A stretch of 64,000 nt of DNA from assembly GCA_045117995.1 (NCBI GenBank), contig JBGUOH010000003.1:32374-96373 (forward strand), written 5' to 3'. Below are positions 15 through 15,013 of this stretch, piece after piece. Made by a program: the position numbers and the translations under genes. Every line of letters starts with the position of its first letter. Position 1 is the stretch's first letter. Source of the DNA: Bacilli bacterium (GTDB lineage: Bacteria; Bacillota_I; Bacilli_A; RFN20; CAG-826). The notes under the pieces were generated by a model. It searched no databases and was not told where the DNA came from. It saw only the letters and a program-made list of their open reading frames with translations.

Positions 15-2348
15 ATGATGATTAATGATTCTAAAAATAAGCATAAAGGAACTGATATCAAGATGGAAATTAACTATAAAGAATTAATCAAAAGATCTCA
101 TTCGTTTAGAAAAGACGAATACATCGATTATTTTTTTAAAAATATAGTTGGAACGGATGAGAAACCTATCTATTGCAAAGAAAACGATTCCACTAAAGAT
201 TATTTTGACATAGCGATTGTTAAAAACTATAAAGAAAAGAAGAGTAAAGTAGGCAATTCTTACATAGGAAAGTATTGGCGCACTTGTATTTTTTACTGCA
301 TTGATAAGGAAGACGCATACGAATACTTAAACACTTCGAACAAAAAGGGCTATTCAATAGATGATGGTATAATTTCTTGGGACACTACTATTGATTTTAA
401 GAAAGAGATGATAAATGAAAGAAGTGCTAAATCGGTAAATTTTAATGTTCTAAAATATTATACAAAAGCTAGATCATCATGGTTTGTTAATTCATATGTT
501 TATTTTGTGTTAATAATATGTGATAAGACATCACCAATTAGTTCAAAGGATTTCTATATTCACTATTGGAACAGAAAATATGCTTTTAAATCAGGGAGTA
601 AATCATCACTTTTTGGAAAGAGTAAAAAGATTGTATTTGTTGAAGATGTTTTGAAGGAATTAGAACTTATTAAAGACAAAAATAAAGATTCTATCGATTG
701 TGTAAGAACCTTTTTCGGAGATTTAAATTTCTTTCCTGAAAACGAAGAAGCTTTTACTGATATCAAAAAAGATATAGATTCAGGAATTCCATATATAATT
801 TGTCAAGGAGCAGCAAGAACGGGGAAAACTATCTTGGCATTTAGATTATTGCGGGAATATCCAGATTTTAAATTATTATTAATGAATTACAACTTTTATG
901 TTTCGCTAAAAGACGCTTTCGGCGTTATTGGGCAACCTTTTCCAAGTGATAGGATTTTTCATCACGATTTAAAACATAAGGGTAATGGCTGTTGGATTAG
1001 TGGTTCAGAGAAAAAATATTTAAATATGAATATATCTCGTCTTATTGTGGATGAAGCTCAAAGATTGGGAACAATGGATGAGGCCAGAACTTTTCATGGG
1101 CGTTATTTATCTCGTCTAGATTCTATTAAAACAATTGTCGACTGCGATGACCACATTCAAACGATATTCTTTGGTGACGATTCTCAAATGCTAAATCCTA
1201 AATACGATAAAGGTATTCATACAATCAAAGAGGCAATTGGTGAAAATGATTACCGTGAGTATTATTTCTCTTCACCGCTAGGCATACCACAAGAGCTTTT
1301 AAGAAATATTCAGTTTTTACTCAACTTTGAAAATTCTGAGCCATACGCTCTAAATAATTTTTCTATTAGTGTAGAAAAGAACTCTATAGATTTTATTAAT
1401 CACTATTTAAATGATGGGCAAACCAAAAAGCATCTAATAGTTCCAATTATTGGTGATATAAAAATGGATGATATCGAAATCGGAGGGATTAACTTCAAAA
1501 ATTTAAAGAGCACTAATTCCTCAAAATATCTTTTTAATAGTGAGATACAAAACCAATATTTTTTAACGGCCTATTCCGTTATTTCTAGAGAAATTGAATC
1601 TGTCTATATTTATATACCGAAATATATTTACTTAGATGACAAAGGGATAATTCAGTCATTTAATGGTCAAAGTAATAGCTTTTTAATGAAACATTTATAC
1701 ACGATTATGACGCGAGCAACAATGTCGCTTGTTATTTGCTGCGAAGATGAAAAGTTGGCAGATTATTTTAATGAAAGAATCATGGCGATGAAATCTGTGA
1801 TTAAAAGTGAAGAAACTGACGAAACATTTACTTTTGATTACGATGTATTCATTGCCTATTTTGGGACCAATAGACCTGACGGTACTTACGAGGAAGCAAA
1901 AGCTGTGTGCGATCTGTTGAAAGAAAAAGGACTAAAAGTATTTTTAAATAACTATTCTTTTATTAGCGAGGATAACAATTTGATGTTTACTGAGACATGG
2001 CATGCTCTAAGTAGAAGTGAAACAATGGTTTTTGTGTTTAATGAAAATGTAGATAAAGACAATCGTGGATTAATCATTAGAGAATTACCAGACGGTAGTG
2101 TAAGTCAAATTTACCGGGAATTATCTGAATTCCAAAATATGATCGATAATGGATTTAGAAAAGCAAAATATGATGCAAAATTCTTTTATTCAGGCCAAAC
2201 GCTAACTAAATTTAATGTTTATCCTTTTCTAAATAAATATTATCCGCCTCTTACTCACGGCAATTCAGATTGTTGTTTTTTAAATAACGAAGAATTGCTA
2301 AATTGGCTTAAAATAAGATTTCCATTTAGAATTGAAGATGATGACTAA
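15..2348 (+). CDS. P-loop NTPase (DUF2075/helicase-related) with C-terminal TIR domain
   Basis: Walker A 'GAARTGKT' and Walker B-like 'LIVDEAQRL' mid-protein; C-terminal 'YDVFIAYFG...KVFL...ETWHALSRSETMVFVF' matches TIR beta-A (DVFISY-like) and a conserved Glu region. 777 aa ORF. Confidence 0.6.
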   Translation: MMINDSKNKHKGTDIKMEINYKELIKRSHSFRKDEYIDYFFKNIVGTDEKPIYCKENDSTKDYFDIAIVKNYKEKKSKVGNSYIGKYWRTCIFYCIDKEDAYEYLNTSNKKGYSIDDGIISWDTTIDFKKEMINERSAKSVNFNVLKYYTKARSSWFVNSYVYFVLIICDKTSPISSKDFYIHYWNRKYAFKSGSKSSLFGKSKKIVFVEDVLKELELIKDKNKDSIDCVRTFFGDLNFFPENEEAFTDIKKDIDSGIPYIICQGAARTGKTILAFRLLREYPDFKLLLMNYNFYVSLKDAFGVIGQPFPSDRIFHHDLKHKGNGCWISGSEKKYLNMNISRLIVDEAQRLGTMDEARTFHGRYLSRLDSIKTIVDCDDHIQTIFFGDDSQMLNPKYDKGIHTIKEAIGENDYREYYFSSPLGIPQELLRNIQFLLNFENSEPYALNNFSISVEKNSIDFINHYLNDGQTKKHLIVPIIGDIKMDDIEIGGINFKNLKSTNSSKYLFNSEIQNQYFLTAYSVISREIESVYIYIPKYIYLDDKGIIQSFNGQSNSFLMKHLYTIMTRATMSLVICCEDEKLADYFNERIMAMKSVIKSEETDETFTFDYDVFIAYFGTNRPDGTYEEAKAVCDLLKEKGLKVFLNNYSFISEDNNLMFTETWHALSRSETMVFVFNENVDKDNRGLIIRELPDGSVSQIYRELSEFQNMIDNGFRKAKYDAKFFYSGQTLTKFNVYPFLNKYYPPLTHGNSDCCFLNNEELLNWLKIRFPFRIEDDD

Positions 2349-2758
2349 ACAACCATATGGATTGGATGAAAGAATGCACATCTGGTGATTATCAAAAGTA
2401 TTATGAAAGAATGCACAAAGATGGATAGTATACGAGAAACTATTTTAAAAGTAATTAAAAATTACTAGTAGACATTTGAACACTGTGATGTGCGCGAAAA
2501 GACATCTTTGCTATTTAAATGGCGTATATGTGCATATAAGCAAAGCCCGTTTTCTAAACCTCTCAAAATTGTGATATCCATAAGCAGATTTAAGAATAGC
2601 TTTTAGCTTATTATTGAGGTCTTTTCTATTGCTATTGTCCGAAAGCTTTCAAATATTGAGTGGTTGCCTGTTTTTGAATGACTATATTAAAATTGAAAGG
2701 CAGTTATTATACGCACGTTAGTAAATGATAATATAGTATCGTATTCATATAACTCATT

Positions 2759-3328
2759 ATGTGTAGCAAAAGAAGAATAAAAGAACTAGCGGATAAGTAT
2801 TCTCCTCTTATTAGTTGGATAATAGAGTCTAACCAAATATATTTAGATATTAATGGTCCTATTAGGTGGGGTTTTAATTGGGATGATGATGTTAGAATAA
2901 CTGCTACTACAAATAGAAAGATAAGTATTATTTTAGTTAACCTTGCTTTTGTGGATGAACAATACCGCAACAAAGAATTGTTTGTAATTGAATATTTTCT
3001 TCTTCATGAAATGAGACATATCTATCAGCATATTCAAATAGCCAAATATAGAGAAGGCAAAAATGATGTTGGTAATCAATATATAGAAAAATGGATTAAA
3101 GAAAACGAAAACTATGAACAATCTGTTGATAAAGGCGGTAGAGAAAACATTAATTATCCAAAACAAGATTGTGAGTTAGATGCATACGCATTTGCATACA
3201 CTGTGATGCATTATAAATATCATGGGATATATGATCATTTCTTATATGTTCCGGAAATATACAAGAACGAATTGAGAGAAGATTTTGAAAAAGCTTTAAA
3301 AGAGTTTATTAAGTATCTAAAAGGTTGA
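2759..3328 (+). CDS. small putative zinc metallopeptidase-like protein (HExxH)
   Basis: 189 aa ORF with 'LLHEMRHIYQH' (HExxH motif); lies between TIR-ATPase gene and 1216-aa gene on same strand. Confidence 0.35.
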   Translation: MCSKRRIKELADKYSPLISWIIESNQIYLDINGPIRWGFNWDDDVRITATTNRKISIILVNLAFVDEQYRNKELFVIEYFLLHEMRHIYQHIQIAKYREGKNDVGNQYIEKWIKENENYEQSVDKGGRENINYPKQDCELDAYAFAYTVMHYKYHGIYDHFLYVPEIYKNELREDFEKALKEFIKYLKG

Positions 3329-3553
3329 TTGCATATCTTAAAAAAGATGTTAAAATCCACTGTGAAAAGTTCTTCTTGTAATCCATTGCGAGATGGATTT
3401 TGATGCTTGTCAACTATATGAATCTGTTGAATGAAGTGGGGTTTTAAAAATCTTGACCCCAATTAACTTAATAGAACCTCTAAAATATAATTTTTATCAT
3501 TGCCCAAAGTAATATGTTACTTACTCTTTGTATTTTTTTTATAAAATAGAGTT

Positions 3554-6500
3554 ATGAATATGAAGTTATTGGACGGAACGATACTAAACAAAATCGTAAG
3601 TTTAAATAGTAAAAAAGCCCAAGTCAAAATCCCTCTTATTTTAAGTATGCTTGTTAGAGAGGATTCTTCGAACGGTGCATATATTAGAATACCAAACAAT
3701 AACGACGTTTCTCTTACAGGCATTGATGGGAAAGTTATTAACAATTCAAATGAGTCACATTTTGTTCCGCTTGGCAACTCTTATTGGGAGATAGGCACTG
3801 GAGAGAAATTTGAAGAGAAAATTTATAATGACTTTCTGAAGAGAAATAATGATAATAATCTCAAAAAAGAAGGTTTTACTTTTGTTTCAATTGCTTGCAC
3901 AAAAGCATCAGAAGCAAAAAAGAATAAATTAATTAAAAAGATTAAGAAAGAATGTAAATTTAAGGATTTTATTATTTACGATTCTACTGATTTGGCAAAT
4001 TGGCTGAGTGAACATATCAACGTTTTACTAAGATTTTATGAATTGTTTGAAGAAACTCCATCTCTTTCTGGAATTGATTTATTGGACACATATTGGTCAA
4101 ATGTGAGCAAGTCCACAAATCCATGTCTTACAAAAGAATTCGTTCTTTATTTTAACGATGGCATTTCTTCAAAAATAGCGAGCGATATAAAAGACAGCTT
4201 ATCCTCTGGAAACATAATTAAACATATTTCTTCTAAGGATTATGGAAAGAAATTTGCACTTTTATTTACATGCGTTTCTATTTTGAAATCCGAGGATGAA
4301 GACCTTATTTGTAGAACGTTGGTTGTTAGGAACCAAGAATGCTTGGATTTTCTACTCACGTCAGCAAAGAACTTGATTTTGTTGTTAGACTTCAATTGCT
4401 TTGATGTGAAACTAGGGCTTGGAATTAACAATACCATCATTGTATTTAGTAACTCAAATGGCGATGATTCAATAAGACGTTTAAACAACAATTCTTTTAC
4501 TAGTGCTGTTGAAAAACTAGGGGTTAGCGAAAGCGAAGCACATAGACTTGCCGTTGAATCTGGCTACAACTATTCTGTTATCATAAGAAGATTGGCTGTA
4601 AATCCTGTTTTAAGAATCCCTTCATGGGCTAGCAACAAGAATAAAAGAGAATTAATTCCTTTAATGCTCTTGGGAACAATAAACACAGGCAATGACGAGT
4701 GCCTTGATATATTAAAAAACATTACATACAGTGATGCTGATAACTATGTTGATGAGCTGATTTTTTGGGGCGAGATGGACGATTCTCCAGTCAGCATAGA
4801 GGGCTCAATATTTGATGCCTGCTCACGTGCAGAACTGTTTGAATTTATCAATATTGATATAAATAACTCAAAACTTAGGTTTCTAGAAAATTATGTGATT
4901 GATGGTGTTGTAAAAAAATCAAAGAATGAATCAGTTTTAATAAATATCATAGATGGATTCATTTATCTAAGTGAAAAAAACTATGCCTGGAAAAATCATT
5001 TTGATAGGTATTTGTATGATCTGTTAAATGAAGTGGAAAAGAATACCAAACTTAAGAAACGTTTTGATTATACCATCTATAAATTATCCAGATTAAATAC
5101 TTCGATCACACTTAGGTATTTAAAAAAGGTGGTTGGTTCTAATGACGAATCAGTTTTAAAAACTATAATCGAAGATGATTCAGTAGAAAAATATAACACA
5201 AATACTTCAAGAGTTTATTTTTTGATGACTCTAGAACAGTGCCTCGTCAAAAAAGAGTTGGTTATTGAAGCCTTAGAAACATTGTTGGATCTTTTTGTTA
5301 GAACAAACAACAAAATAGTCGAAAAAGAGGTTATTAAAGTGTTTTCGCCTATGTCTTCTGCGATAGGATTGACTAATATCTCTTCTAAAAATAAAGCAAA
5401 CATATTATTTTCTTATTTAAACAAAATAGAAGATAATTTAATGTTTTATGAAATCATGAGCAATCTATCTAATGGTGGAGACACATCGTTTGTTATAGGA
5501 GTTAACAGCGACACTATTGACTACGAGCAATATCAACAAACTGTTACATATGATGATGTAGCTTACATTAAGCAAAAATCATCAGACTGGTTGCTAGAAA
5601 ATGCAAAAGAAGACAAAACTAGAGATGCGATTGAAACAGTGTTAGAAGGATTATATGGATGCGATGAAAATGGCTGTCAACATATAATTAAACAGATTGA
5701 AAAATTCATTAACGCCAATCAAAAAGATGATAAAAACCTTGCAATTGCAAACAAAGAATTACTTCGAACTATTAATAGTATTACTAAATATCGCAACAAA
5801 GGGAGTGCTATTAAGGCATACTATGGTGATTTGCAAAGACTTTACGATAAGTCTATTCCTAAGGATCTTATGATAAAGTATCGATATATTTTTGAATCTA
5901 ACGATTTTCCAATCATTAAATCTTCTAGACTAGACAGTGACGATTGGTATGAAAAAGATGAAGAAGAACGAAACAGAATAAGAAAACTGGCGCTTGCTGA
6001 GTTATTTGGCAAATATTCAGAAGATGATGTTATTGATTATCTAATCAATGTTTGCAAAAACTATATTTACTATGTTTGGAATTCTGTTTATGACATTGCT
6101 AAAGATAAAAATAAATGCTTAAAAAAGCTTATCCTCGCAGATAAACCAAGCGCTATCAAGGATTTCTTGTTTAAATATGATATCTGTTCAATAAAAGAAC
6201 TTTTTGAAAATTTGTCTAGTAACGAGCTAAATGTAGTTTGCCGCTGTTTGCCGCTAAGACAAGATATTGTCGATTACATTTCAGACACAGAATATGAAAA
6301 AGTGTTTTGGGAGAATTTGGAATATTTCAGAACAAACGACATATCAGAAGATATTTTGTTTGAGAAGCTACTTAAATACAATCCGATGAGGCTTCTTTCC
6401 CCGTATGCATATCTTATGAAAAGCAAAGATTATAAAAAAGGCATAAGTCTTTTATCTGCTATTGTAGATATTAGCAAGGATAGATTAATAGAAGATGACC

Positions 6501-7204
6501 ACTATGCTCTAGAACACATCGTCAAAGAAATGGATTCTATGTATTTTACAGAAGAACTATCTAATTGCGAAATAGCGCTCTTGCCACACTTAAAACGGAG
6601 TATGAGGGACTATCCACTTGGCATGAAAAGACTTTTTTGGTCTCGTCCAGAAAGATTTGTTGAATTTTTGAAAAATATTTATTCAAAGAAAAATTCTTTT
6701 GAAGAAGAGAGTGTAGGACGATCTATCTATTTTGAACTCGAATTTTCGTTCAGTCATGCGTGCTTTGTTCCAACGGATTATTTATATCAAAAAGCGGATG
6801 AACTCTGTAACTGGGTGGAAGAGATATTGACCAGTTTAAAAAAAGAAGAAAAAGATTTTGCTCGCTTCGCTAAAAAAATCGTGGTTTCTACTTTATCTTG
6901 CTGTCCTTCCACATCGGAATATATTTGGCCGAGCACTGTTATTGCCGACTTGACGGAGAAGATAGCAGAAGATGGCTTTGACGACCCATATGAAGTGAGC
7001 AGAATATTCTATACCTCCTTCATTAATCGAAGAGGTGCTATTTGGGTTGATGATGGGACAGCTGAATTCGAATCTGCGACAAAATATAAAAAGTATGCCG
7101 ATTTTTACAGCGAAACACATAAAATCATTTCTAAAGCTCTTCATTATATTTCAGACAGTTTTCAAACCGATGGAGAGGAATTCAAAAAAAGAAAAAGATT
7201 CTAG
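3554..7204 (+). CDS. large hypothetical protein (1216 aa), no recognisable NTPase motif, mostly helical-looking
   Basis: Uninterrupted 1216-aa ORF with plausible RBS context; no Walker A found by eye; 3' end overlaps by 4 nt the stop of the convergent TOPRIM-like gene. Confidence 0.5.
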   Translation: MNMKLLDGTILNKIVSLNSKKAQVKIPLILSMLVREDSSNGAYIRIPNNNDVSLTGIDGKVINNSNESHFVPLGNSYWEIGTGEKFEEKIYNDFLKRNNDNNLKKEGFTFVSIACTKASEAKKNKLIKKIKKECKFKDFIIYDSTDLANWLSEHINVLLRFYELFEETPSLSGIDLLDTYWSNVSKSTNPCLTKEFVLYFNDGISSKIASDIKDSLSSGNIIKHISSKDYGKKFALLFTCVSILKSEDEDLICRTLVVRNQECLDFLLTSAKNLILLLDFNCFDVKLGLGINNTIIVFSNSNGDDSIRRLNNNSFTSAVEKLGVSESEAHRLAVESGYNYSVIIRRLAVNPVLRIPSWASNKNKRELIPLMLLGTINTGNDECLDILKNITYSDADNYVDELIFWGEMDDSPVSIEGSIFDACSRAELFEFINIDINNSKLRFLENYVIDGVVKKSKNESVLINIIDGFIYLSEKNYAWKNHFDRYLYDLLNEVEKNTKLKKRFDYTIYKLSRLNTSITLRYLKKVVGSNDESVLKTIIEDDSVEKYNTNTSRVYFLMTLEQCLVKKELVIEALETLLDLFVRTNNKIVEKEVIKVFSPMSSAIGLTNISSKNKANILFSYLNKIEDNLMFYEIMSNLSNGGDTSFVIGVNSDTIDYEQYQQTVTYDDVAYIKQKSSDWLLENAKEDKTRDAIETVLEGLYGCDENGCQHIIKQIEKFINANQKDDKNLAIANKELLRTINSITKYRNKGSAIKAYYGDLQRLYDKSIPKDLMIKYRYIFESNDFPIIKSSRLDSDDWYEKDEEERNRIRKLALAELFGKYSEDDVIDYLINVCKNYIYYVWNSVYDIAKDKNKCLKKLILADKPSAIKDFLFKYDICSIKELFENLSSNELNVVCRCLPLRQDIVDYISDTEYEKVFWENLEYFRTNDISEDILFEKLLKYNPMRLLSPYAYLMKSKDYKKGISLLSAIVDISKDRLIEDDHYALEHIVKEMDSMYFTEELSNCEIALLPHLKRSMRDYPLGMKRLFWSRPERFVEFLKNIYSKKNSFEEESVGRSIYFELEFSFSHACFVPTDYLYQKADELCNWVEEILTSLKKEEKDFARFAKKIVVSTLSCCPSTSEYIWPSTVIADLTEKIAEDGFDDPYEVSRIFYTSFINRRGAIWVDDGTAEFESATKYKKYADFYSETHKIISKALHYISDSFQTDGEEFKKRKRF

Positions 7205-7893
7205 TTGTTTTCTAACAGAACCACATACTCTTTCTTCATGTATTCAACATTCTCAAACAACCAAAAGATAACGTTTGAATAAGGCAACAACGAGTTATTG
7301 TCTTTCATAATAAAGTCCCAACTATCTTCAAATGTTTTTACATCTGGTGAAACACCTTTTAACTTTTCTAATAAGGCACCTAAGTTATTAGAATACTTAG
7401 CGAACATCTTTAACGCTAATAGTTTCTTTTGTTTATTGTTTGCGTTTTGAATATTGTCAAAAGCATGTTCTGCATTAGTTGAGACGTAATACAGTTTAAT
7501 CTTTCCACTCTTTAAGATAGTGGCGATGTTGTTTCTCTTGTTCTCTCTTTGCTGCTTTAATGGCTTAGGATTTTCACAAATAATTGATGTAGTAGTGTAC
7601 TTGATATTAGTAACACTATGGTCAACTTGGATTAGACTATCTGATAAGAAGCATCCATCTGTATCAATGATTTGAATAATTTCATCAAAGCTTTCGAAAT
7701 CATAAACCTTTTCCTTGTTCAACACTTCTTTGATATTTGTCTTATATCTATTTGCATACGATTTCTTAGTTAAGATATCGGTTTGAAAAGGAACAATTAC
7801 TAGATTGCTCTTATCAAATAATCCTTGTAGCACAGAAAAACGTTGTCTATCTGTTGCGCCTTCCACTAAAAACAAACAACGTTTCTTATTCAT
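7201..7893 (-). CDS. TOPRIM/OLD-like small nuclease-family protein (DUF4435 AriB-like / RloB-like)
   Basis: N-terminal 'LFLVEGATD' (TOPRIM Glu) and downstream 'IIQIIDTDGCF' (DxD); 230 aa; immediately downstream of AAA_21-type ATPase on same strand. Confidence 0.55.
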   Translation of the reverse strand: MNKKRCLFLVEGATDRQRFSVLQGLFDKSNLVIVPFQTDILTKKSYANRYKTNIKEVLNKEKVYDFESFDEIIQIIDTDGCFLSDSLIQVDHSVTNIKYTTTSIICENPKPLKQQRENKRNNIATILKSGKIKLYYVSTNAEHAFDNIQNANNKQKKLLALKMFAKYSNNLGALLEKLKGVSPDVKTFEDSWDFIMKDNNSLLPYSNVIFWLFENVEYMKKEYVVLLENN

Positions 7894-7900
7894 ATATCCG

Positions 7901-9277
7901 TTAATCTCCTAAATATAAAGCATTAATCATTTCTTCGGTTCTGACGGCATCATATAATTTCTTGTCGGATTCTTCGAAGTTGATTAAATACTTATAGTAC
8001 ATATCTCTTAAATTATTGGATTCTCTGACTTTATTGATCTGCACGAAAGCATCATTTCTATCAGTTGTAGTGAAGAAGAAATTCTTGTAATCAACCTTTT
8101 CTAAGATTCGCATATTGTGAGAATTAAATATTAATTGCCCCTTAGCGAAATTAGCAAAAGCATAAACCATTTCTCCTAGTAAGTATTCAAAAATGCCGCT
8201 ATCAAGTTCATCGATGACAATTAGGCATCCTTCATGATTAAAAGCATCAATGAAACCACTTAAGATAGATAAAATCTTTTTAATGCCATTAGATTCTAAA
8301 GATAAAGGAATTGGAGCGTCGTCACCTCTTTTGGAAACAAGAATGAATTGAACGCTCTTTGAATATTCTCTTTCTATTTCTGAATTAAGGATATGGAAAT
8401 CCAGTTTATAATTTGGTATTAATGACGGGATTACTTTGTTAATTTGATTAACAATTTTCTTAAATGAATTAAATTGATCGATTGTTAACACGGTTGGTGC
8501 AAAAGGCACAAATATGTCGCTAACAATTGGCATTTCCGTATTTGATTGCATTACTCTAAATCTCATACCGACATTTTGGTTGTCGTTAAAGTAGCTTAAG
8601 GAGTAGATGGCGAATTTGTAAGATGCAAAAGCCGACAAACTTAAGCAAATGATTTTGAAGTCTTCGTTGATATTTTTTGCTTTAGAAATAATGTCGATTG
8701 TTTTTCTGTTAAACAAAGACGAAAGAGGAGCTTGAGTATTTATATTGGATTTTGTTTCAATTCCAATAGTAAAGGAGTAGATGGCTCTTTCTTTGTCATT
8801 TAAAGCGTTGGCAAAAACGCCATTAAGTGAATTAGGACTATTGAACAAATAATAATTATTCTTTCTAGGCTCTTTTTTGCTGAAGAATGAAACTTTCTCC
8901 TTTTTGATATAAGAGGTAAGTCTATCATTTGATCCTAATTCGATAAGGTAATTAACATAAAATGTATTGTCGTTGCTATCAATTAAAAAATCGGCTTCAA
9001 CAGCGCAGCTATTTTCTCCGTTTGTGATGTAATTAGGATTGAATGAAAATAGTGGCGTTCCACACAAAATGTGTTGCAAGATTCTAAGCGCATCAACGGT
9101 TGTGGTTTTACCGCTGCCATTTTGTCCATAAATGCCTATAACAGAACCAAAGTCGTCATCTGAAAAATCTCCTCTTTCCAACTTTTTTTGTTCGGGAAAA
9201 AAGATTTCTCCGTTTTTAACGTTCTTGATGTTTTGAACTTTTAATCTTTCTAGTCTGACAGTTCCTAAATTGCTCAT
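7901..9277 (-). CDS. AAA_21/ABC-type ATPase (AriA/AbiLi/OLD-ATPase-like)
   Basis: Walker A 'GIYGQNGSGKTT', Walker B 'LIVIDELDSGI', H-loop-like 'FNSHNM' near C-terminus; 458 aa. Confidence 0.65.
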   Translation of the reverse strand: MSNLGTVRLERLKVQNIKNVKNGEIFFPEQKKLERGDFSDDDFGSVIGIYGQNGSGKTTTVDALRILQHILCGTPLFSFNPNYITNGENSCAVEADFLIDSNDNTFYVNYLIELGSNDRLTSYIKKEKVSFFSKKEPRKNNYYLFNSPNSLNGVFANALNDKERAIYSFTIGIETKSNINTQAPLSSLFNRKTIDIISKAKNINEDFKIICLSLSAFASYKFAIYSLSYFNDNQNVGMRFRVMQSNTEMPIVSDIFVPFAPTVLTIDQFNSFKKIVNQINKVIPSLIPNYKLDFHILNSEIEREYSKSVQFILVSKRGDDAPIPLSLESNGIKKILSILSGFIDAFNHEGCLIVIDELDSGIFEYLLGEMVYAFANFAKGQLIFNSHNMRILEKVDYKNFFFTTTDRNDAFVQINKVRESNNLRDMYYKYLINFEESDKKLYDAVRTEEMINALYLGD

Positions 9278-9561: not shown

Positions 9562-11703
9562 ATGAAAAAGATTAATTGTTTTGTTGCTACGCTGGTAGGG
9601 TTTTTTGCTATAGGTTTAATTGGTTGTAATGCTAATAAGTTACCTACTACACAATATGAGAAAGTTAAGTTTGCTTTTAACGGGGTGGAGAAATCATTTA
9701 AGTCTCCTAAAGTAGTTAAAAGAAACAAACCATTATTATTAAAAAGAAATAAGATAGGGGGATCTAATCCATCCAGTGCTCTAGATACTATTTTCAGCAT
9801 GTATAACGAAGAAGATATACGAGATGACTTCCTAGAAGAAGTAGAATACAACCAACCTCCAATGGTCCAGTTCCAATATATTAAAAAAGTCTTAGAAAAA
9901 GTTGGAAGTGGCTATGAATTTGGCAAGAAGTACTATGACACCATAACTGGCGACATGTATTTAGATGTTGATACTGGTCTAAAAAGAGAAGGTGACGAAT
10001 ATAAATATAACTACACCTTCACTTTAGGTATGGATATTAATATCGATGATAATAATCTCATTACCGCGGATGTATCATTTGATATTAATCTTAAAAAAGG
10101 TAGTGAGTCATATACCACGAAATGGTATGTAGGAATAGAACTAGACTATGATATGGCTAATAACTCTCCTAACTATACAATGAGTATGGTGACAGAGAAT
10201 GATGAAAGAGAACTACCATATTATGGAAGCTATACATATGAATATGATTATGTAGAAGTTAAGAACTCCGAAATTAATGAATGGAGAAAATTCTGCATGG
10301 ATAACGATCATCGATTAGTGAAAGACGCTAGTCATCAAGACTTCAATGCTTACGTTAATGAAGGGTGTGAATATAAAGTAGATGCTTGTTCTTGGTATAA
10401 GAATGGTACTTACTATAAGAACAAGAATGTTAGACAAAAAAGCGAAGCTGCTAAGACAATCGCTAATGCTTTGTTTACTAATTTAGGATTGAACACTAAT
10501 GAGATAGATGCTGATAGATTCTTTAATAAAGCCGGTACACAAAACAGTGTTCTTAAAACTTGCTATAACGATTTCTCTAAAATCGCTAAAGAAGACATTA
10601 TCTATGATCTAGTTTGTAAAGAAGAACAAGAAGAACAAAAACAAGAGATTGTGGCTATTAGAGCAATGAATGCTGATTTATCCGGAGGTGCTGGTAACTA
10701 CCAAGTTCCTGGTAATGTCACTATACGAGAACTACTCAGTGGTTTTGTTGATGAAAATGGAGAGAAACTAGCTATCCATTTATATTACATTGATCAAAAT
10801 TATGCTTTAGTTTCAGAAATCACTGATTTAGTGGCTTTAAGATTCTATATTAGACAACAAGATAACAATGAAGCTAAAGAAGTAAGTTTAGTTGATAGTT
10901 TGTCTGACATTATGGAGAGATATAAATTCACAAGTAGAAACCTCATCATTGCCTTTATGGATGGTCAAGGTATAGGTGGTGTGATGGACTTCATCTATTC
11001 AGGTGATTTACCAGATACATATGTTAAACCAACATTCCCTAAAGCCTTAGCGGACATCGGTGTTCCTGAATATGACGGGGAAAGAATTGAATATGGTACA
11101 CAAGAATTAAGTAAAGAGCCATATGTCTTAGAAATTAAAAATACTAGATATAGTGAATCACAAAACTATAAAAATAAGCTAAACGGTAATGGTTTTATTC
11201 TTGATGGTGGATATCTTGGTACATTTAAAGGTGCCTATTACCGCAAAGAAGCAGGTGATAACTATCTCTGGGTTAATTATGATGATAGTGATGCTAGTTT
11301 AGGCACTGTTATTATTCGTGCTTTCCACGAAGCTAAACCACAACAACAGGAAGATGACAGTATTAATTCCATCTCCATGGTCGGTGATTTCAATGACTGG
11401 GATGTCACAAGTGGTGGTTTGATGTTTACAAAAATGGGTGATGATTTATTCCGTTTAACTAGTGTGTATCTTCAACCAAAACAAGCATTCAAATTTGTTG
11501 TTAATAATGATTGGGGCACTAGAGGCGGCTATGGTTATAGTGATGTTCTTAATATTGCCGAATATGGTGAGTACTTAGCTGGTGGAACAAACGATAATAT
11601 CGTTGTCCAAGATCAAACAGTGTTTTTCGCAGTCGACGCTGTTATTTATGAAGGTAGAATAACATTTACTATTTCTGAATTTGAAGTTATAGCGCCTAAG
11701 TAA
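9562..11703 (+). CDS. lipoprotein with C-terminal carbohydrate-binding-module-like (CBM48/CBM20-like) domain
   Basis: Signal peptide plus lipobox 'AIGLIGC'; C-terminal 'ISMVGDFNDWD...FKFVVNNDWG' resembles glycogen/starch-binding E-set/CBM motifs. Confidence 0.5.
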   Translation: MKKINCFVATLVGFFAIGLIGCNANKLPTTQYEKVKFAFNGVEKSFKSPKVVKRNKPLLLKRNKIGGSNPSSALDTIFSMYNEEDIRDDFLEEVEYNQPPMVQFQYIKKVLEKVGSGYEFGKKYYDTITGDMYLDVDTGLKREGDEYKYNYTFTLGMDINIDDNNLITADVSFDINLKKGSESYTTKWYVGIELDYDMANNSPNYTMSMVTENDERELPYYGSYTYEYDYVEVKNSEINEWRKFCMDNDHRLVKDASHQDFNAYVNEGCEYKVDACSWYKNGTYYKNKNVRQKSEAAKTIANALFTNLGLNTNEIDADRFFNKAGTQNSVLKTCYNDFSKIAKEDIIYDLVCKEEQEEQKQEIVAIRAMNADLSGGAGNYQVPGNVTIRELLSGFVDENGEKLAIHLYYIDQNYALVSEITDLVALRFYIRQQDNNEAKEVSLVDSLSDIMERYKFTSRNLIIAFMDGQGIGGVMDFIYSGDLPDTYVKPTFPKALADIGVPEYDGERIEYGTQELSKEPYVLEIKNTRYSESQNYKNKLNGNGFILDGGYLGTFKGAYYRKEAGDNYLWVNYDDSDASLGTVIIRAFHEAKPQQQEDDSINSISMVGDFNDWDVTSGGLMFTKMGDDLFRLTSVYLQPKQAFKFVVNNDWGTRGGYGYSDVLNIAEYGEYLAGGTNDNIVVQDQTVFFAVDAVIYEGRITFTISEFEVIAPK

Positions 11704-11811
11704 TAGTGCTTTAATAAATAGTTAAATACCTCAACGATAGTTTCTTGTTATTTTGTTATACTTTAAATACAATAAATAGCAATTAATTAAACATATCGTT
11801 GAGGTGTTTTT

Positions 11812-12294
11812 ATGAAAACCAAAATCTTAGAGTTATTAGAAAAGAACGCAAAACTTTCTATTAAAGAAATTGCAGAAGAACTTGATATCAAAGAAAAGGA
11901 TGCCCTCCAATTAGTGGGCGAACTAGAAGCGGATAAAGTGATATGTGGATATTCTGCCATTATTAACTGGGATAAGATCACTGAAGAAAAGTGCAATGCT
12001 TTAATTGAAGTGAAAGTCACGCCTCAAAGAGGTACTGGTTTTGATAGAATTGCTGACCGTATATCTAGATTTGATGAAGTAGATAGTATCTATCTTATTT
12101 CTGGTGGTTATGACTTTATGGTTATCATTAATGGTAAATCTATGAAAGAAGTATCCTCATTTGTGTTTAATAAATTAGCGACGATAGATTATGTACAAAG
12201 TACTGCCACTCACTTTGTCTTAAAGAAATATAAAGACCATGGAGTGCAGTTAGAAGATAAACTAGGTGATAAAAGAACTAATATTGTTTTATGA
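11812..12294 (+). CDS. Lrp/AsnC family transcriptional regulator
   Basis: 160 aa; N-terminal HTH 'LSIKEIAEELDI' and C-terminal RAM-like domain typical of Lrp/AsnC; overlaps the downstream aminotransferase by 4 nt. Confidence 0.7.
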   Translation: MKTKILELLEKNAKLSIKEIAEELDIKEKDALQLVGELEADKVICGYSAIINWDKITEEKCNALIEVKVTPQRGTGFDRIADRISRFDEVDSIYLISGGYDFMVIINGKSMKEVSSFVFNKLATIDYVQSTATHFVLKKYKDHGVQLEDKLGDKRTNIVL

Positions 12295-13448
12295 GAGATT
12301 TCGTATCAGAAAAAATTAAGAACATAAAACCTTCTGGTATCAGAAAGTTCTTTGATATTGCTAATAGTATTGAAGACTGTATCTCTTTAGGTGTGGGTGA
12401 ACCTGATTTTGATACGCCTTGGCATATTACAGAAGAAGGTATCTATTCTTTAGAACAAGGAAGAACTTTCTATACATCTAATCAAGGTTTACCGGAATTA
12501 AGAGAAGAAATCTCTAAATGGAATAAACGTAAATATAATCTTGATTATTCTAAAGAAGAAATCATTATCACCTGTGGTGGCTCAGAGGCTATTGATGTGG
12601 CCCTCAGAGCAACGATTAACCCAGGGGATGAGGTAATTATCCTTGAACCTAATTACGTCTGCTACGAGCCAGATATTTTACTTGCTGGTGGTGTACCTAT
12701 TAAGATTAAACTTAAAAATGAAAATGAGTTTAGATTAACTCCAATTGAATTAGAGAGCGTTATCACTCCTAAAACAAAGATCTTATTAATGAACTATCCT
12801 AATAACCCTACTGGGGCTATTATGGCTAAAGAAGATTTAGAAAAGATATCTAAGGTTATTATTAAACATGACCTCTTAGTAATATCTGATGAAATATATA
12901 GTGAATTAACATACGCTGGTAATCATTATTCTATCGGAGCATTACCAGGTATGAGAGATAGAACCATTACCATTAATGGCTTCTCTAAAACATATTCCAT
13001 GACTGGATGGAGATTAGGCTATGTCATGGGACCTAAAGAAATTATGGATCAAGTTAAAAAGATCCATCAATTCGTGGTCATGAGCGCACCTACGATATCT
13101 CAATATGCTGGATTAGAAGCATTAAGAAATGGTGATGAAGATATTGAAAGAATGAAGAAGGAATACGATAAGCGTAGAAAATATCTCTTAAAAGAATTTA
13201 ATAGATTATCACTTCCTTGCTTTGAACCTAAAGGAGCATTCTATATCTTCCCTGATATTAGAAAATACAATATGAGTAGCGAAGAGTTCGCCACTCAGTT
13301 ATTAAATAAAGAACATGTCGTTGTTGTTCCTGGAACAGCCTTTGGTGATAGTGGTGAAGGATTTATTAGAATATCCTATGCCTATTCATTAGATGCTTTA
13401 AAGGAAGCTATTAAGAGAATAGAGAGATTCCTTAAGAGTCTAAAGTAA
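12291..13448 (+). CDS. PLP-dependent aminotransferase class I/II (aspartate/aromatic aminotransferase-like)
   Basis: 'GFSKTYSMTGWRLGY' PLP-lysine motif region, 'NYPNNPTG' motif; 385 aa. Confidence 0.75.
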   Translation: MRDFVSEKIKNIKPSGIRKFFDIANSIEDCISLGVGEPDFDTPWHITEEGIYSLEQGRTFYTSNQGLPELREEISKWNKRKYNLDYSKEEIIITCGGSEAIDVALRATINPGDEVIILEPNYVCYEPDILLAGGVPIKIKLKNENEFRLTPIELESVITPKTKILLMNYPNNPTGAIMAKEDLEKISKVIIKHDLLVISDEIYSELTYAGNHYSIGALPGMRDRTITINGFSKTYSMTGWRLGYVMGPKEIMDQVKKIHQFVVMSAPTISQYAGLEALRNGDEDIERMKKEYDKRRKYLLKEFNRLSLPCFEPKGAFYIFPDIRKYNMSSEEFATQLLNKEHVVVVPGTAFGDSGEGFIRISYAYSLDALKEAIKRIERFLKSLK

Positions 13449-13474
13449 CAAAAACACTAACATTTTATTTAGAT

Positions 13475-13502
13475 ACCACCTCAATAAATGGGGTGGTTTT
13501 TT
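13475..13502 (+). terminator. rho-independent terminator after aminotransferase
   Basis: 'ccacc-tcaataaatgg-ggtgg' stem-loop followed by tttttt. Confidence 0.6.
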
Positions 13503-13584
13503 CTTAAATAAAATGTCTATAAAATATTGAATTCAATTTACTAAAATGGTAAAATGAATGTGCCACTAAAGAAAGGGGGCTCCA

Positions 13585-13938
13585 ATGAAGATAGTTTACA
13601 GCAATAAAAAGACCGAAAAACTTTGCGAAGATTATAGTAAGGCCATCAAAGATCTTGGCAAAGAAGTTGCTAATAAACTATCTGATTTACTTAACGCCAT
13701 TGAATCGTTCCCAACATTGCTTGATCTATTCTATTTACCACAATATAGATTGCATGCTTTGGGACAAAACAGACAATATCAATACTCATTCGTTATTCAT
13801 AAAGGATATAAGTGGCGATTGATTGTTTATCCACTTGATGAAGGTGGAAATATCCTTAAAGATAAGAGTAACGAAAAAGAGATGTTGTCTAAGGCAGTTA
13901 TGGTAGAGATATTGGAGGTGAGTGAGCATTATGATTGA
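13585..13938 (+). CDS. HigB-like toxin (RelE/ParE superfamily, plasmid killer family)
   Basis: 'RLHALGQNRQYQYSFVIHKGYKWRLIV' matches the HigB/killer-protein consensus (RLE.LKG.R.G.YSIRIN.QWRI.F); 117 aa; overlaps downstream antitoxin-like gene. Confidence 0.55.
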   Translation: MKIVYSNKKTEKLCEDYSKAIKDLGKEVANKLSDLLNAIESFPTLLDLFYLPQYRLHALGQNRQYQYSFVIHKGYKWRLIVYPLDEGGNILKDKSNEKEMLSKAVMVEILEVSEHYD

Positions 13939-15013
13939 GAGAAAGAGAATTGTCAGCCATCCTGGTGTATATGTTAAAGACGCTATTGAATCGTTAGGGC
14001 TGAGTCAAAGTGAATTTGCATATAGAACAGGATTATCAGTTAAAAACGTTTCAACACTTATTAATGGAGAAAGCAATATCACTTTTGATGTTGCTCTTAA
14101 ATTAGCGGGCTTTTTCCACAATAGTGTTGAAGGTTGGATTAATCTTCAAACTAAATACAATATCTTCTTAAATGAAGAAACAAAGCAAAAAGAATATGAA
14201 GAAGATTGGCTTATCGCAAAGCAATTCGATAAAACTTTTGTTCTTAATCTTCTACATATTCAAATCGATTCTAAGAACAAAGAATCCACAATTGATGAAC
14301 TAAGAAAACGATTTAAGGTTGTTAATTTACAAAATCTAAAAAGCCCAGATATGTATGCATTCTGCAGAACAAGTGTTTCGAAAGATATTAATGAAAAGAT
14401 GATTATCATGAGAAACGCATGGATTTCATTAGCTGAAGAAGAGGCAAGACAAATGGAATGCTCTGAGTTTGATAAGGACATGATTACTTCAAATGTTAAA
14501 TATCTCAGATCACTCACTCTTAAGGAACCAGATGAAATGAGCTCTGAATTAACAAACTTCTTAGCTAAGTGCGGTGTTAAACTCGTTATTCTTCCATTCC
14601 TTCCTGGAAGCAACATCAGTGGTGTTACCAAATGGGTCGCTAGCGAAAACTGCGTTATGGTAGCGGTTAATGACTGTGGTAAAGACGCTGATAAGATTTG
14701 GTTCTCCATATTCCACGAACTCGGCCACGCCATCAAGAATCATAAAAGACATCTAACCATTTCTCTTAGCAAGAACAATATAGAAGACGCTGAGGAGATT
14801 GAAGCAAATACATTTGCTAGAGATTCTTTATTAGATAAAAAAGACTTTGAAAGCTTCGTTAGAAAACAGGACTTCTCGATATCAAGCATTAAAGCCTTTG
14901 CTAGATCTCAAGATGTTGCTCCATTTGTGGTCATCGGCAGACTTCAAAAAGAGAAAATAATCGGTTGGGACAAATATCAAAACTATAAAACTAAATACGA
15001 AATTGGTTTTTAA
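13922..15013 (+). CDS. HigA-like HTH (XRE) antitoxin fused to ImmA/IrrE-family metallopeptidase domain
   Basis: N-terminal 'SHPGVYVKDAIESLGLSQSEFAYRTGLSVKNVSTLINGESNIT' (HigA/XRE HTH); C-terminal 'IFHELGHAIKNH' HExxH as in the COG2856 ImmA/IrrE family. Confidence 0.6.
   Translation: MSIMIERKRIVSHPGVYVKDAIESLGLSQSEFAYRTGLSVKNVSTLINGESNITFDVALKLAGFFHNSVEGWINLQTKYNIFLNEETKQKEYEEDWLIAKQFDKTFVLNLLHIQIDSKNKESTIDELRKRFKVVNLQNLKSPDMYAFCRTSVSKDINEKMIIMRNAWISLAEEEARQMECSEFDKDMITSNVKYLRSLTLKEPDEMSSELTNFLAKCGVKLVILPFLPGSNISGVTKWVASENCVMVAVNDCGKDADKIWFSIFHELGHAIKNHKRHLTISLSKNNIEDAEEIEANTFARDSLLDKKDFESFVRKQDFSISSIKAFARSQDVAPFVVIGRLQKEKIIGWDKYQNYKTKYEIGF

Follow-up and report, generated by a model that had tools for sequence, protein, structure and literature searches.

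A locus encoding a TIR-tailed helicase, an HExxH protein and a 1216-residue solenoid protein in a Bacilli bacterium is probably a defence-island stretch of autonomous units

Do three neighbouring genes that share a strand in the genome of a Bacilli bacterium, encoding a TIR-fused helicase-like ATPase (here helicase-TIR), a small HExxH protein and a 1216-residue protein (here the giant), form one defence system, or have independent units come to lie side by side? The question is raised by the first part of a stretch of 64,000 nucleotides (nt) of contig JBGUOH010000003.1 (assembly GCA_045117995.1, positions 32,374 to 96,373 of the forward strand), which is referred to as the window throughout. 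Our preferred reading, to which we assign a probability of about 0.6, is that window positions 1-9.3 kb are a defence-island stretch of this low-GC, Erysipelotrichales-like genome in which autonomous units adjoin, and that they hold no three-gene system. More than 100 related loci were compared overall (L-numbers below), and individual homologous proteins are given P-numbers. The three open reading frames (ORFs), their motifs and the 4-nt overlap with a convergent neighbour all lie where a preliminary description of the sequence had placed them in the ORF list, with GAARTGKT at residues 265-272 and IVDEAQ at residues 344-349 of the first protein (777-residue numbering) and HEMRH at residues 83-87 of the small one. 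That description had also let the TIR-ATPase gene start 14 nt into the window, which has to be corrected: the homologues all begin with MEINYKE, corresponding to M17 and nt 63, an AAGGA ribosome-binding site precedes that ATG, and the start is thus most likely at nt 63, giving a predicted protein of 761 amino acids (aa) in a reading frame that is open up to the window edge. The positions of all features are collected in Table 1.

Co-occurrence of the three genes

The preliminary description had made the case for a joint system depend on the three genes being found together elsewhere, and they essentially never are. Beyond two near-identical loci, L001 and L122, the arrangement was not repeated, and of these only L122, which comes from an independent sample, has the same three genes, as L001 is without the HExxH gene. 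From position 3479 onwards L001 is 95% identical to the window at the nt level, the helicase gene is 71% identical (70% at the aa level), and positions 2349-3478 are missing. The divergent helicase gene pair (L001 3883-6168 against window 63-2348) is thus followed downstream by 6.8 kb of 95% identical sequence. Because flank and helicase gene differ so much in identity and the intervening segment is absent, the comparison of sequences points to allele replacement or recombination of the helicase cassette at module borders. A third close relative, L002, shares positions 3507-9225 only, so that the giant and the convergent gene pair behind it are kept while the helicase is absent and an unrelated gene on the reverse strand is found upstream. 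In a metagenomic set of 80 loci with relatives of the giant, making up 26 clusters at 70% identity, hidden Markov models (HMMs) for the HExxH protein and the helicase matched none.

The helicase family, for its part, was observed without a constant neighbour. In 24 contigs its members follow an operon of a P4_cII-like gene, a 302-aa gene and a RES gene, in L001 and L018 they follow an Abi_2 pair, and in Mycoplasmatota bacterium zrk2 a member lies immediately behind a ThsB-like TIR gene (Pfam ThsB_TIR, 2.9e-13; L017 9384-9893). A giant-family gene was found in none of the remaining helicase loci examined beyond L001 and L122, and homologues of the HExxH protein occur near the helicase in L017 and L018 without being adjacent to it. 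In L018, an island that shares its pair of 213-aa and 223-aa (Abi_2) genes with L001, the HExxH homologue belongs to a SMEK_N/HExxH pair situated 8.5 kb downstream of the helicase-TIR homologue. Within the window 410 nt separate the first gene from the second and 225 nt the second from the third. A promoter-like site ahead of the giant gene lies mostly inside the sequence that L001 has in common with the window, and the part in common with L002 starts just downstream of this site. Separate transcription fits these gaps and this site. The practical consequence is that a false three-gene system is removed from the catalogue.

The HExxH (zincin-like) protein would have arrived on the 1.1-kb insertion that L001 lacks, flanked by what is left of a transposase gene. 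This remnant (peptide ...NNKLKAILKSAYGYHNFERFRKRALL... and ...NNKLKAILKSAYGYHNFERFRKRALLICTYTPFK, each running to a stop codon) resembles the C-termini of ISL3-family transposases by eye and lies at the left edge of the segment, which suggests a rearrangement mediated by an insertion sequence at this junction. A 13-nt direct repeat, GAAAGAATGCACA, occurs twice right behind the helicase stop codon (2368-2380 and 2405-2417, 37 nt apart), and the intergenic sequence 2349-2758 had no match in plasmid DNA. The protein has a 56%-identical homologue in L018, a weak one in L017, and relatives on 11 viral contigs, where they are stand-alone ORFs of 170-210 aa. The family conforms to the pattern HE[MI]RH[IY]YQ ... 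W ... Y ... Q..E.DA; three homologues and the viral relatives share an invariant HE[MI]RH together with the conserved residues E115, E117, E139 and D141. No match was found in Pfam, NCBIfam, PADLOC, PHROGs or PDB, nor among GenBank phages and PLSDB plasmids. We treat the gene as an accessory or mobile one.

The helicase-TIR protein and its exchangeable C-terminus

The helicase-like P-loop ATPase core named in the preliminary description is borne out by a match to SLFN-g3_helicase/DUF2075 (Pfam PF09848) of 34.8 bits, above the cutoff of 24, and by intact SF1 motifs I, II, III and VI. We found 37 homologues, and in the motif alignment of 31 of them GAARTGKT, IVDEAQR, FFGDDSQ and MTRAT are invariant or nearly so. 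For the N-terminal 240 aa no family match was obtained in the libraries searched, and in PADLOC the protein matched no Nhi model and only a GajB fragment (E 0.011).

The C-terminal 184 aa were modelled by AlphaFold2 (AF2), with 20 homologues, at a predicted local distance difference test score (pLDDT) of 91 and a predicted template modelling score (pTM) of 0.87. In a Foldseek search of the PDB the best 20 matches were all TIR domains (E 1e-4 to 5e-3, template modelling (TM) scores 0.33-0.55). The structures matched include RUN1, RPS4, L7, TIR-STING, RPP1, TIR-1/SARM1, TcpB and PdTIR, with SPARTA TIR-APAZ chains at ranks 25-32. The region thus models as a TIR fold of the flavodoxin-like kind (betaA-alphaA to betaE-alphaE), as had been expected, and the C-terminus as modelled is a divergent TIR domain, a call that is owed to the predicted fold and the TIR-only top matches and not to sequence models. 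Glu702, in the motif YRELSEF, is invariant across 21 aligned TIR-tailed homologues and is placed in the first turn of the helix after betaC (the helix spanning residues 105-118 of the modelled domain). It is at such a spot that the catalytic Glu of TIR NADases is found, for example E100 in RUN1 and E642 in SARM1, and Glu702 would be the equivalent residue as judged by position and not by residue-level superposition.

The TIR domain is not the only effector found on this helicase. In about nine homologues a DarT domain (PF14487) was observed in its place, and the helicase family profile matches the DarT1 structure 8baq. Two such DarT-tailed DUF2075 helicase genes are L020 9602-12600 and L022 9917-12897, both of which are overlapped at the 3' end by a NADAR-DarT1 antitoxin gene (E 1e-80 and 9e-63, respectively); the published description of DarT1-NADAR, when searched, held no mention of a helicase fusion. 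Since these paralogues end in DarT and are followed by the antitoxin, the C-terminus is, as far as sequence comparison can tell, an exchangeable slot for toxic effectors (TIR or DarT1) on an otherwise intact SF1/DUF2075 helicase. The DarT1 version, constitutively dangerous, comes with an antitoxin; no antitoxin accompanies the TIR version. This exchange on a common chassis is a natural experiment in which one sensor is combined with different effectors, and it raises the question why DarT1 alone needs an antitoxin.

As a single-protein system, helicase-TIR would most likely sense phage nucleic acid or translocate on it by means of the N-terminal domain and the SF1/DUF2075 core. Activation of the core may then switch on the TIR domain, and destruction of NAD+ or a product derived from NAD could lead to abortive infection. 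The defence setting that the preliminary description took as typical for a TIR-NTPase fusion is supported. Among proteins that have a name, its closest relatives are Nhi and the Nhi-like proteins, which combine an N-terminal nuclease with DUF2075. Like these, helicase-TIR is a single polypeptide with a DUF2075/SLFN-group-3 SF1 core and an extra N-terminal domain, located in a defence island; unlike them it goes unmatched by the PADLOC Nhi models and adds a C-terminal toxin (TIR or DarT1) that is unmentioned in the Nhi descriptions examined. A TIR-like fold with a conserved Glu in helix alphaC is shared with the TIR-effector defences (Thoeris ThsB, SPARTA TIR-APAZ, TIR-STING and the plant TIR NADases), from which the protein differs in being too divergent for the Pfam TIR model and in being fused to a helicase and not to STING, APAZ or an NLR. 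The likeness to DarTG1 is confined to the paralogues that end in DarT and are followed by a NADAR-DarT1 antitoxin gene; the window protein has a TIR domain and no antitoxin gene, and even the paralogues tether DarT to a helicase, in contrast to the free toxin of DarTG1.

The family of the 1216-residue protein

In the giant no domain could be assigned from the sequence alone, and for the curated libraries this holds, but it is a member of a very large family whose architecture has three parts. When a profile built on residues 1-430 was searched against 1.84 billion representatives, 4,012 of these cluster representatives passed E<=1e-3 and 2,062 passed E<=1e-30; almost all are 1,250-1,280 aa long. 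That the giant is a near-orphan, as a word-index search with 5-6 matches would have had it, was rejected by this exhaustive profile search as an artefact of sensitivity. Where members have a name it is "hypothetical protein", or "HTH regulator" where a helix-turn-helix (HTH) is fused N-terminally, and PHROG 18693, of unknown function, matches the giant at 1.7e-30. Such HTH fusions (HTH_3, HTH_31, HTH_17) have arisen independently in P0071, P0121, P0123, P0165, P0173 and L124 5656-9774, and RefSeq labels a whole HTH-fused giant of 1,350 aa "helix-turn-helix transcriptional regulator". Split metagenomic genes of the family, for example of 635 and 641 aa with a 4-nt overlap, occur in L037 (5103-8926), L047/L048 and L052, and may be frameshifts, pseudogenes or assembly errors.

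The absence of an NTPase motif, already remarked upon in the preliminary description, extends to the family, as neither GxxxxGK[ST] nor a conserved acidic Walker B was found in 153 members. An AF2 model of a 1200-aa truncation (pLDDT 73) is divided into an alpha/beta part (residues 1-165), a poorly modelled alpha/beta and helical part (166-425) and an all-alpha part (426-1216). The Foldseek comparison called for earlier returned HEAT/ARM solenoids only (CAND1, importin-beta, CRM1, SF3B1, Pds5), all with low TM scores. A match to iSTAND (E 0.015-0.019), seen in two of six members in one scan and in one of 24 in another and falling in the wrong region, was rejected as chance because it is weak and does not recur.

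In the N-terminal domain D58, E79 and K89 were observed in every one of the 153 members, and G56, G59, P72, G74, W78, D93, R97 and W150 are conserved in at least 90%; the secondary structure in the AF2 model is compatible with the order alpha-beta-beta-beta-alpha-beta. One relative, P0043, is homologous to the giant from position 167 all the way to the end (hhalign 99.7%, E 1e-25) and carries SMEK_N (1.9e-44) at its start. SMEK is a nuclease domain of proteins that partner short Argonautes (PMC10810196). From this swap, the invariant triad and the order of secondary-structure elements taken together, we predict that the N-terminal domain is a nuclease effector of the PD-(D/E)xK type. SMEK_N occupies exactly the position of the N-terminal domain, whose G-x-D-G ... 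W-E-I-G ... K pattern resembles, by eye, the motifs of the SMEK, DUF4365 and Mrr-type PD-(D/E)xK effectors. Unlike in these, Gly81 stands where the lysine of the canonical (D/E)xK is expected, with the invariant Lys 10 residues later, and hhalign of the domain against SMEK_N was not significant (P 0.41). Profiles of the domain built from 6 and 24 sequences had no match in the PDB, and no Pfam nuclease was found in the 24 members.

The genomic settings of the family are variable but consistently defence-related or mobile. In the window and L001 the giant has OLD, Abi_2 and AbiL-like neighbours, in L005 a relative lies beside SIR2-HerA and a serine recombinase, and in L006 an Eco57I-like gene, an AAA_15/21 pair, and DAC and PIN genes are nearby. 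In L014 a relative fills a prophage slot between holin and tail-fibre genes and an integrase; IMG/VR yielded one prophage locus only for the N-terminal domain patterns. Other relatives are carried by conjugative plasmids, whose hosts include Shewanella, Rhizobium and Ralstonia. Three contexts recur in the 80 metagenomic loci: the relative is inserted in the order hsdM-hsdS-[giant]-hsdR, as in L074 and L096, and is set off from its neighbours by 9-12 nt and 2-5 nt, it is preceded by a DUF499 ATPase, at times with HEPN_Swt1, or it is convergent with an S8 peptidase and AAA pair. "Guilt by embedding", as inside restriction-modification (R-M) operons, has been established as a way to predict defence genes (bioRxiv 10.1101/2024.01.29.577857; PMC11411939). 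As no partner is universal, the giant is most simply a one-gene module. In L124, on the Rhizobium plasmid pPR4, a second hypothetical protein (1,281 aa; 9838-13683) is encoded 64 nt behind an HTH-fused giant, both within a Tn7-like (Mu transposase/TniB) element.

We infer that the giant is an ATPase-less sensor-nuclease defence protein. Standing alone, it would use the solenoid and the non-NTPase middle domain to detect either a trigger that comes from the phage or the disappearance of a partner that it guards, and detection would unleash the predicted nuclease around D58, E79 and K89. Extended to the whole family, which comprises at least 2,000 clusters at 50% identity (in Bacillota, Proteobacteria, Chloroflexota and others) and is un-named in every library searched, the proposal is tentative and we put it well below even odds: its members may be ATPase-less single-polypeptide immune sensors, in which the solenoid detects a phage cue, or the inactivation of the R-M complex whose operon often harbours the gene, and then switches on a new D-E-K nuclease head that is interchangeable with SMEK. 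If true, the family would stand beside the Avs/STAND sensors as their NTP-independent counterpart and would be widespread as a guard of restriction systems. The resemblance to Avs/STAND lies in the succession of a putative N-terminal effector, a middle domain and a long C-terminus of helical repeats, encoded by a single gene in defence islands and prophages; the difference is that the family lacks conserved Walker A and B motifs, so that the giant should be unable to act as an NTP-driven switch, and has no recurrent STAND HMM match. With genes embedded in R-M systems (PrrC, TgvAB and the HEC/PDC candidates) the family shares its position between hsdS and hsdR (gaps 2-12 nt) and beside DUF499 ATPases, but the giant has no PADLOC HEC/PDC match and the window copy adjoins an AbiL-like pair outside any R-M operon. 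A family thousands strong, nameless in Pfam, NCBIfam, PADLOC v2 and RefSeq, thus combines a catalytic-looking triad, the swap of a nuclease domain and insertion between hsdS and hsdR, and members from cultivable hosts (Shewanella baltica pSBAL17501, WP_014615232.1; Rhizobium and Ralstonia plasmids) make the defence idea testable.

Alternative groupings and the gene neighbourhood

Downstream of the giant the window continues with a convergent pair. Its 458-aa AAA_21 ATPase matches AbiLi in PADLOC (2.3e-27), and the 230-aa partner has VEGATD...DTDG motifs (E...DxD, TOPRIM-like), a weak match to mad4 (E 0.021) and no PADLOC match to AbiLii. The pair is better conserved than the giant: its ATPase has 99% identity in L001 and 91% in L002, where the giant reaches 96% and 71%, respectively. 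Exact-sequence look-ups aimed at the flank upstream of the window gave nothing for helicase-TIR, its 776-aa twin in the database and the giant, and short contigs only for the 230-aa and HExxH proteins.

Several points weigh against a reading of the locus as autonomous units. In the three closest loci (the window, L001 and L002) the giant and the convergent pair are conserved together, and a different AAA_21 pair abuts a distant relative of the giant in L006; there is a small chance that the giant is linked to such ATPase pairs. In L018 (16190-21341) the HExxH homologue lies 20 nt behind the gene of a 1523-aa protein that carries SMEK_N and has a STAND-like region (weak nSTAND3), which hints at a recurring pairing of HExxH proteins with giants. 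The TIR assignment has met with no match of the helicase-TIR C-terminus to Pfam TIR, TIR_2 or ThsB_TIR at E<=0.1, no TIR among the precomputed Pfam domains of the 37 homologues and no TIR chain in a phmmer search of the PDB, and the structural match is moderate (TM about 0.5, E about 1e-4). In the model of the giant the loop bearing D58 has a pLDDT below 50. Finally, the comparisons establish the anatomy of the genes, the TIR fold, the swap of effectors, the size of the giant family with its invariant triad, the lack of conserved partners and the embedding in R-M loci; every biochemical activity and defence phenotype ascribed here to the three proteins is one that we infer.

These points may be read as signs of larger units, and four alternatives were weighed. 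One operon-like abortive-infection system, with helicase-TIR as the sensor, the HExxH protein as a processing protease and the giant as scaffold or executor, would account for the adjacency of the three genes on one strand, for the same arrangement in the independent sample L122 and for the helicase staying beside the giant gene in L001. We regard it as highly improbable in view of the two wide intergenic gaps with a promoter-like site ahead of the giant gene, the absence of the HExxH gene from L001 with the discordant divergence of its helicase, the absence of the helicase from L002, the helicase loci elsewhere without a giant and the 80 giant loci without either partner. A narrower two-gene unit would pair the HExxH protein, as a dedicated regulator, antitoxin-like factor or processing protease, with giants that have a nuclease head, the 1216-aa protein among them. 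This idea draws on the 20-nt spacing in L018 and on the place of the window gene directly before a giant whose relative P0043 carries SMEK_N. Yet the 1523-aa SMEK/STAND protein, considered as a member of the giant family, was rejected as no homology was detected, the L001 giant is 96% identical with no HExxH gene at hand, homologues were found at none of the 80 giant-family loci, and the relatives on phage contigs stand alone, which makes such a partnership very unlikely.

Should the giant instead act as sensor or effector in a three-gene system with the convergent AbiL-like ATPase and TOPRIM-like protein, the joint conservation of these genes, with their 4-nt convergent overlap, at the three closest loci would be explained, and so might the AAA_21/AAA_15 ATPase and 204-aa gene immediately upstream of the distant relative in L006-L008 and the AAA_21-like 770-aa gene 1.2 kb downstream in L003. 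However, the ATPase pairs of the window and L006 are not specifically related, these convergent genes are not co-transcribed, the 80 metagenomic relatives have no recurrent AAA_21-type partner and the prophage and plasmid relatives examined have none, and AAA_21 pairs are very common residents of defence islands anyway. A specific link to pairs of AAA_21 and small proteins was rejected, since the pairs are unrelated and absent from most loci, and we hold the three-gene version for distinctly improbable. The giant family may, lastly, not be immune at all and serve as a maintenance, regulatory or exclusion factor of mobile elements, for example as a DNA-binding scaffold. Many members carry an N-terminal HTH and are annotated as regulators, one follows directly upon parAB on a conjugative plasmid, and others lie between housekeeping genes. 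The repeated tight embedding between hsdS and hsdR and the DUF499/HEPN, SIR2-HerA, AbiL-like and OLD neighbours are typical of defence, though, and both the invariant D/E/K triad and the exchange for a SMEK nuclease argue for catalysis, so that a non-immune role is considered unlikely.

Table 1. Features of the first 9.3 kb of the window, in window positions
Feature	Position	Strand	Basis or remark
777-aa ORF (helicase-TIR)	15-2348	+	mechanical ORF list
helicase-TIR gene, likely extent	63..2348	+	761 aa counted from M17
helicase-TIR N-terminal domain, ~240 aa, uncharacterised	63-800	+	
SF1/DUF2075 helicase core	807-1721	+	
helicase motifs	Walker A 807-830; DEAQ 1044-1061; FFGDDSQ 1167-1187; MTRAT 1704-1721	+	
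TIR-like C-terminal effector domain	1839..2348	+	AF2 model, Foldseek; betaA strand YDVFIAY at 1839-1859
YRELSEF with putative catalytic Glu702, start of helix alphaC	2112-2132	+	
1.1-kb segment with HExxH gene, missing from L001	2349..3478		blastn breakpoints
transposase gene, 3'-end remnant	2514..2630	-	six-frame translation
189-aa HExxH protein ORF	2759..3328	+	HEMRH at 3005-3019
promoter-like site TTAACT-17-TATAAT	3463..3491	+	consensus match only, 10/12
1216-aa protein (giant) ORF	3554..7204	+	
giant N-terminal alpha/beta domain, aa 1-165	3554..4048	+	D58 3725-3727; E79 3788-3790; K89 3818-3820
giant middle alpha/beta and helical region, aa ~166-425	4049..4828	+	low-confidence model
giant all-alpha HEAT/ARM-like solenoid, aa ~426-1216	4829..7204	+	AF2 secondary structure, Foldseek; presumed sensor or scaffold
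convergent neighbouring pair, outside the three genes	7201..9277	-	
230-aa ORF of convergent pair	7201-7893	-	stop end overlaps giant ORF by 4 nt (7201-7204)
458-aa AAA_21 ATPase of convergent pair	7901-9277	-	

Further downstream, just past a group of housekeeping genes, a 117-aa ORF overlaps a 363-aa ORF with an HTH-like N-terminus and the motif HELGH (13585-15013, forward strand), and the two look like a pair of a toxin and an ImmA-type antitoxin.

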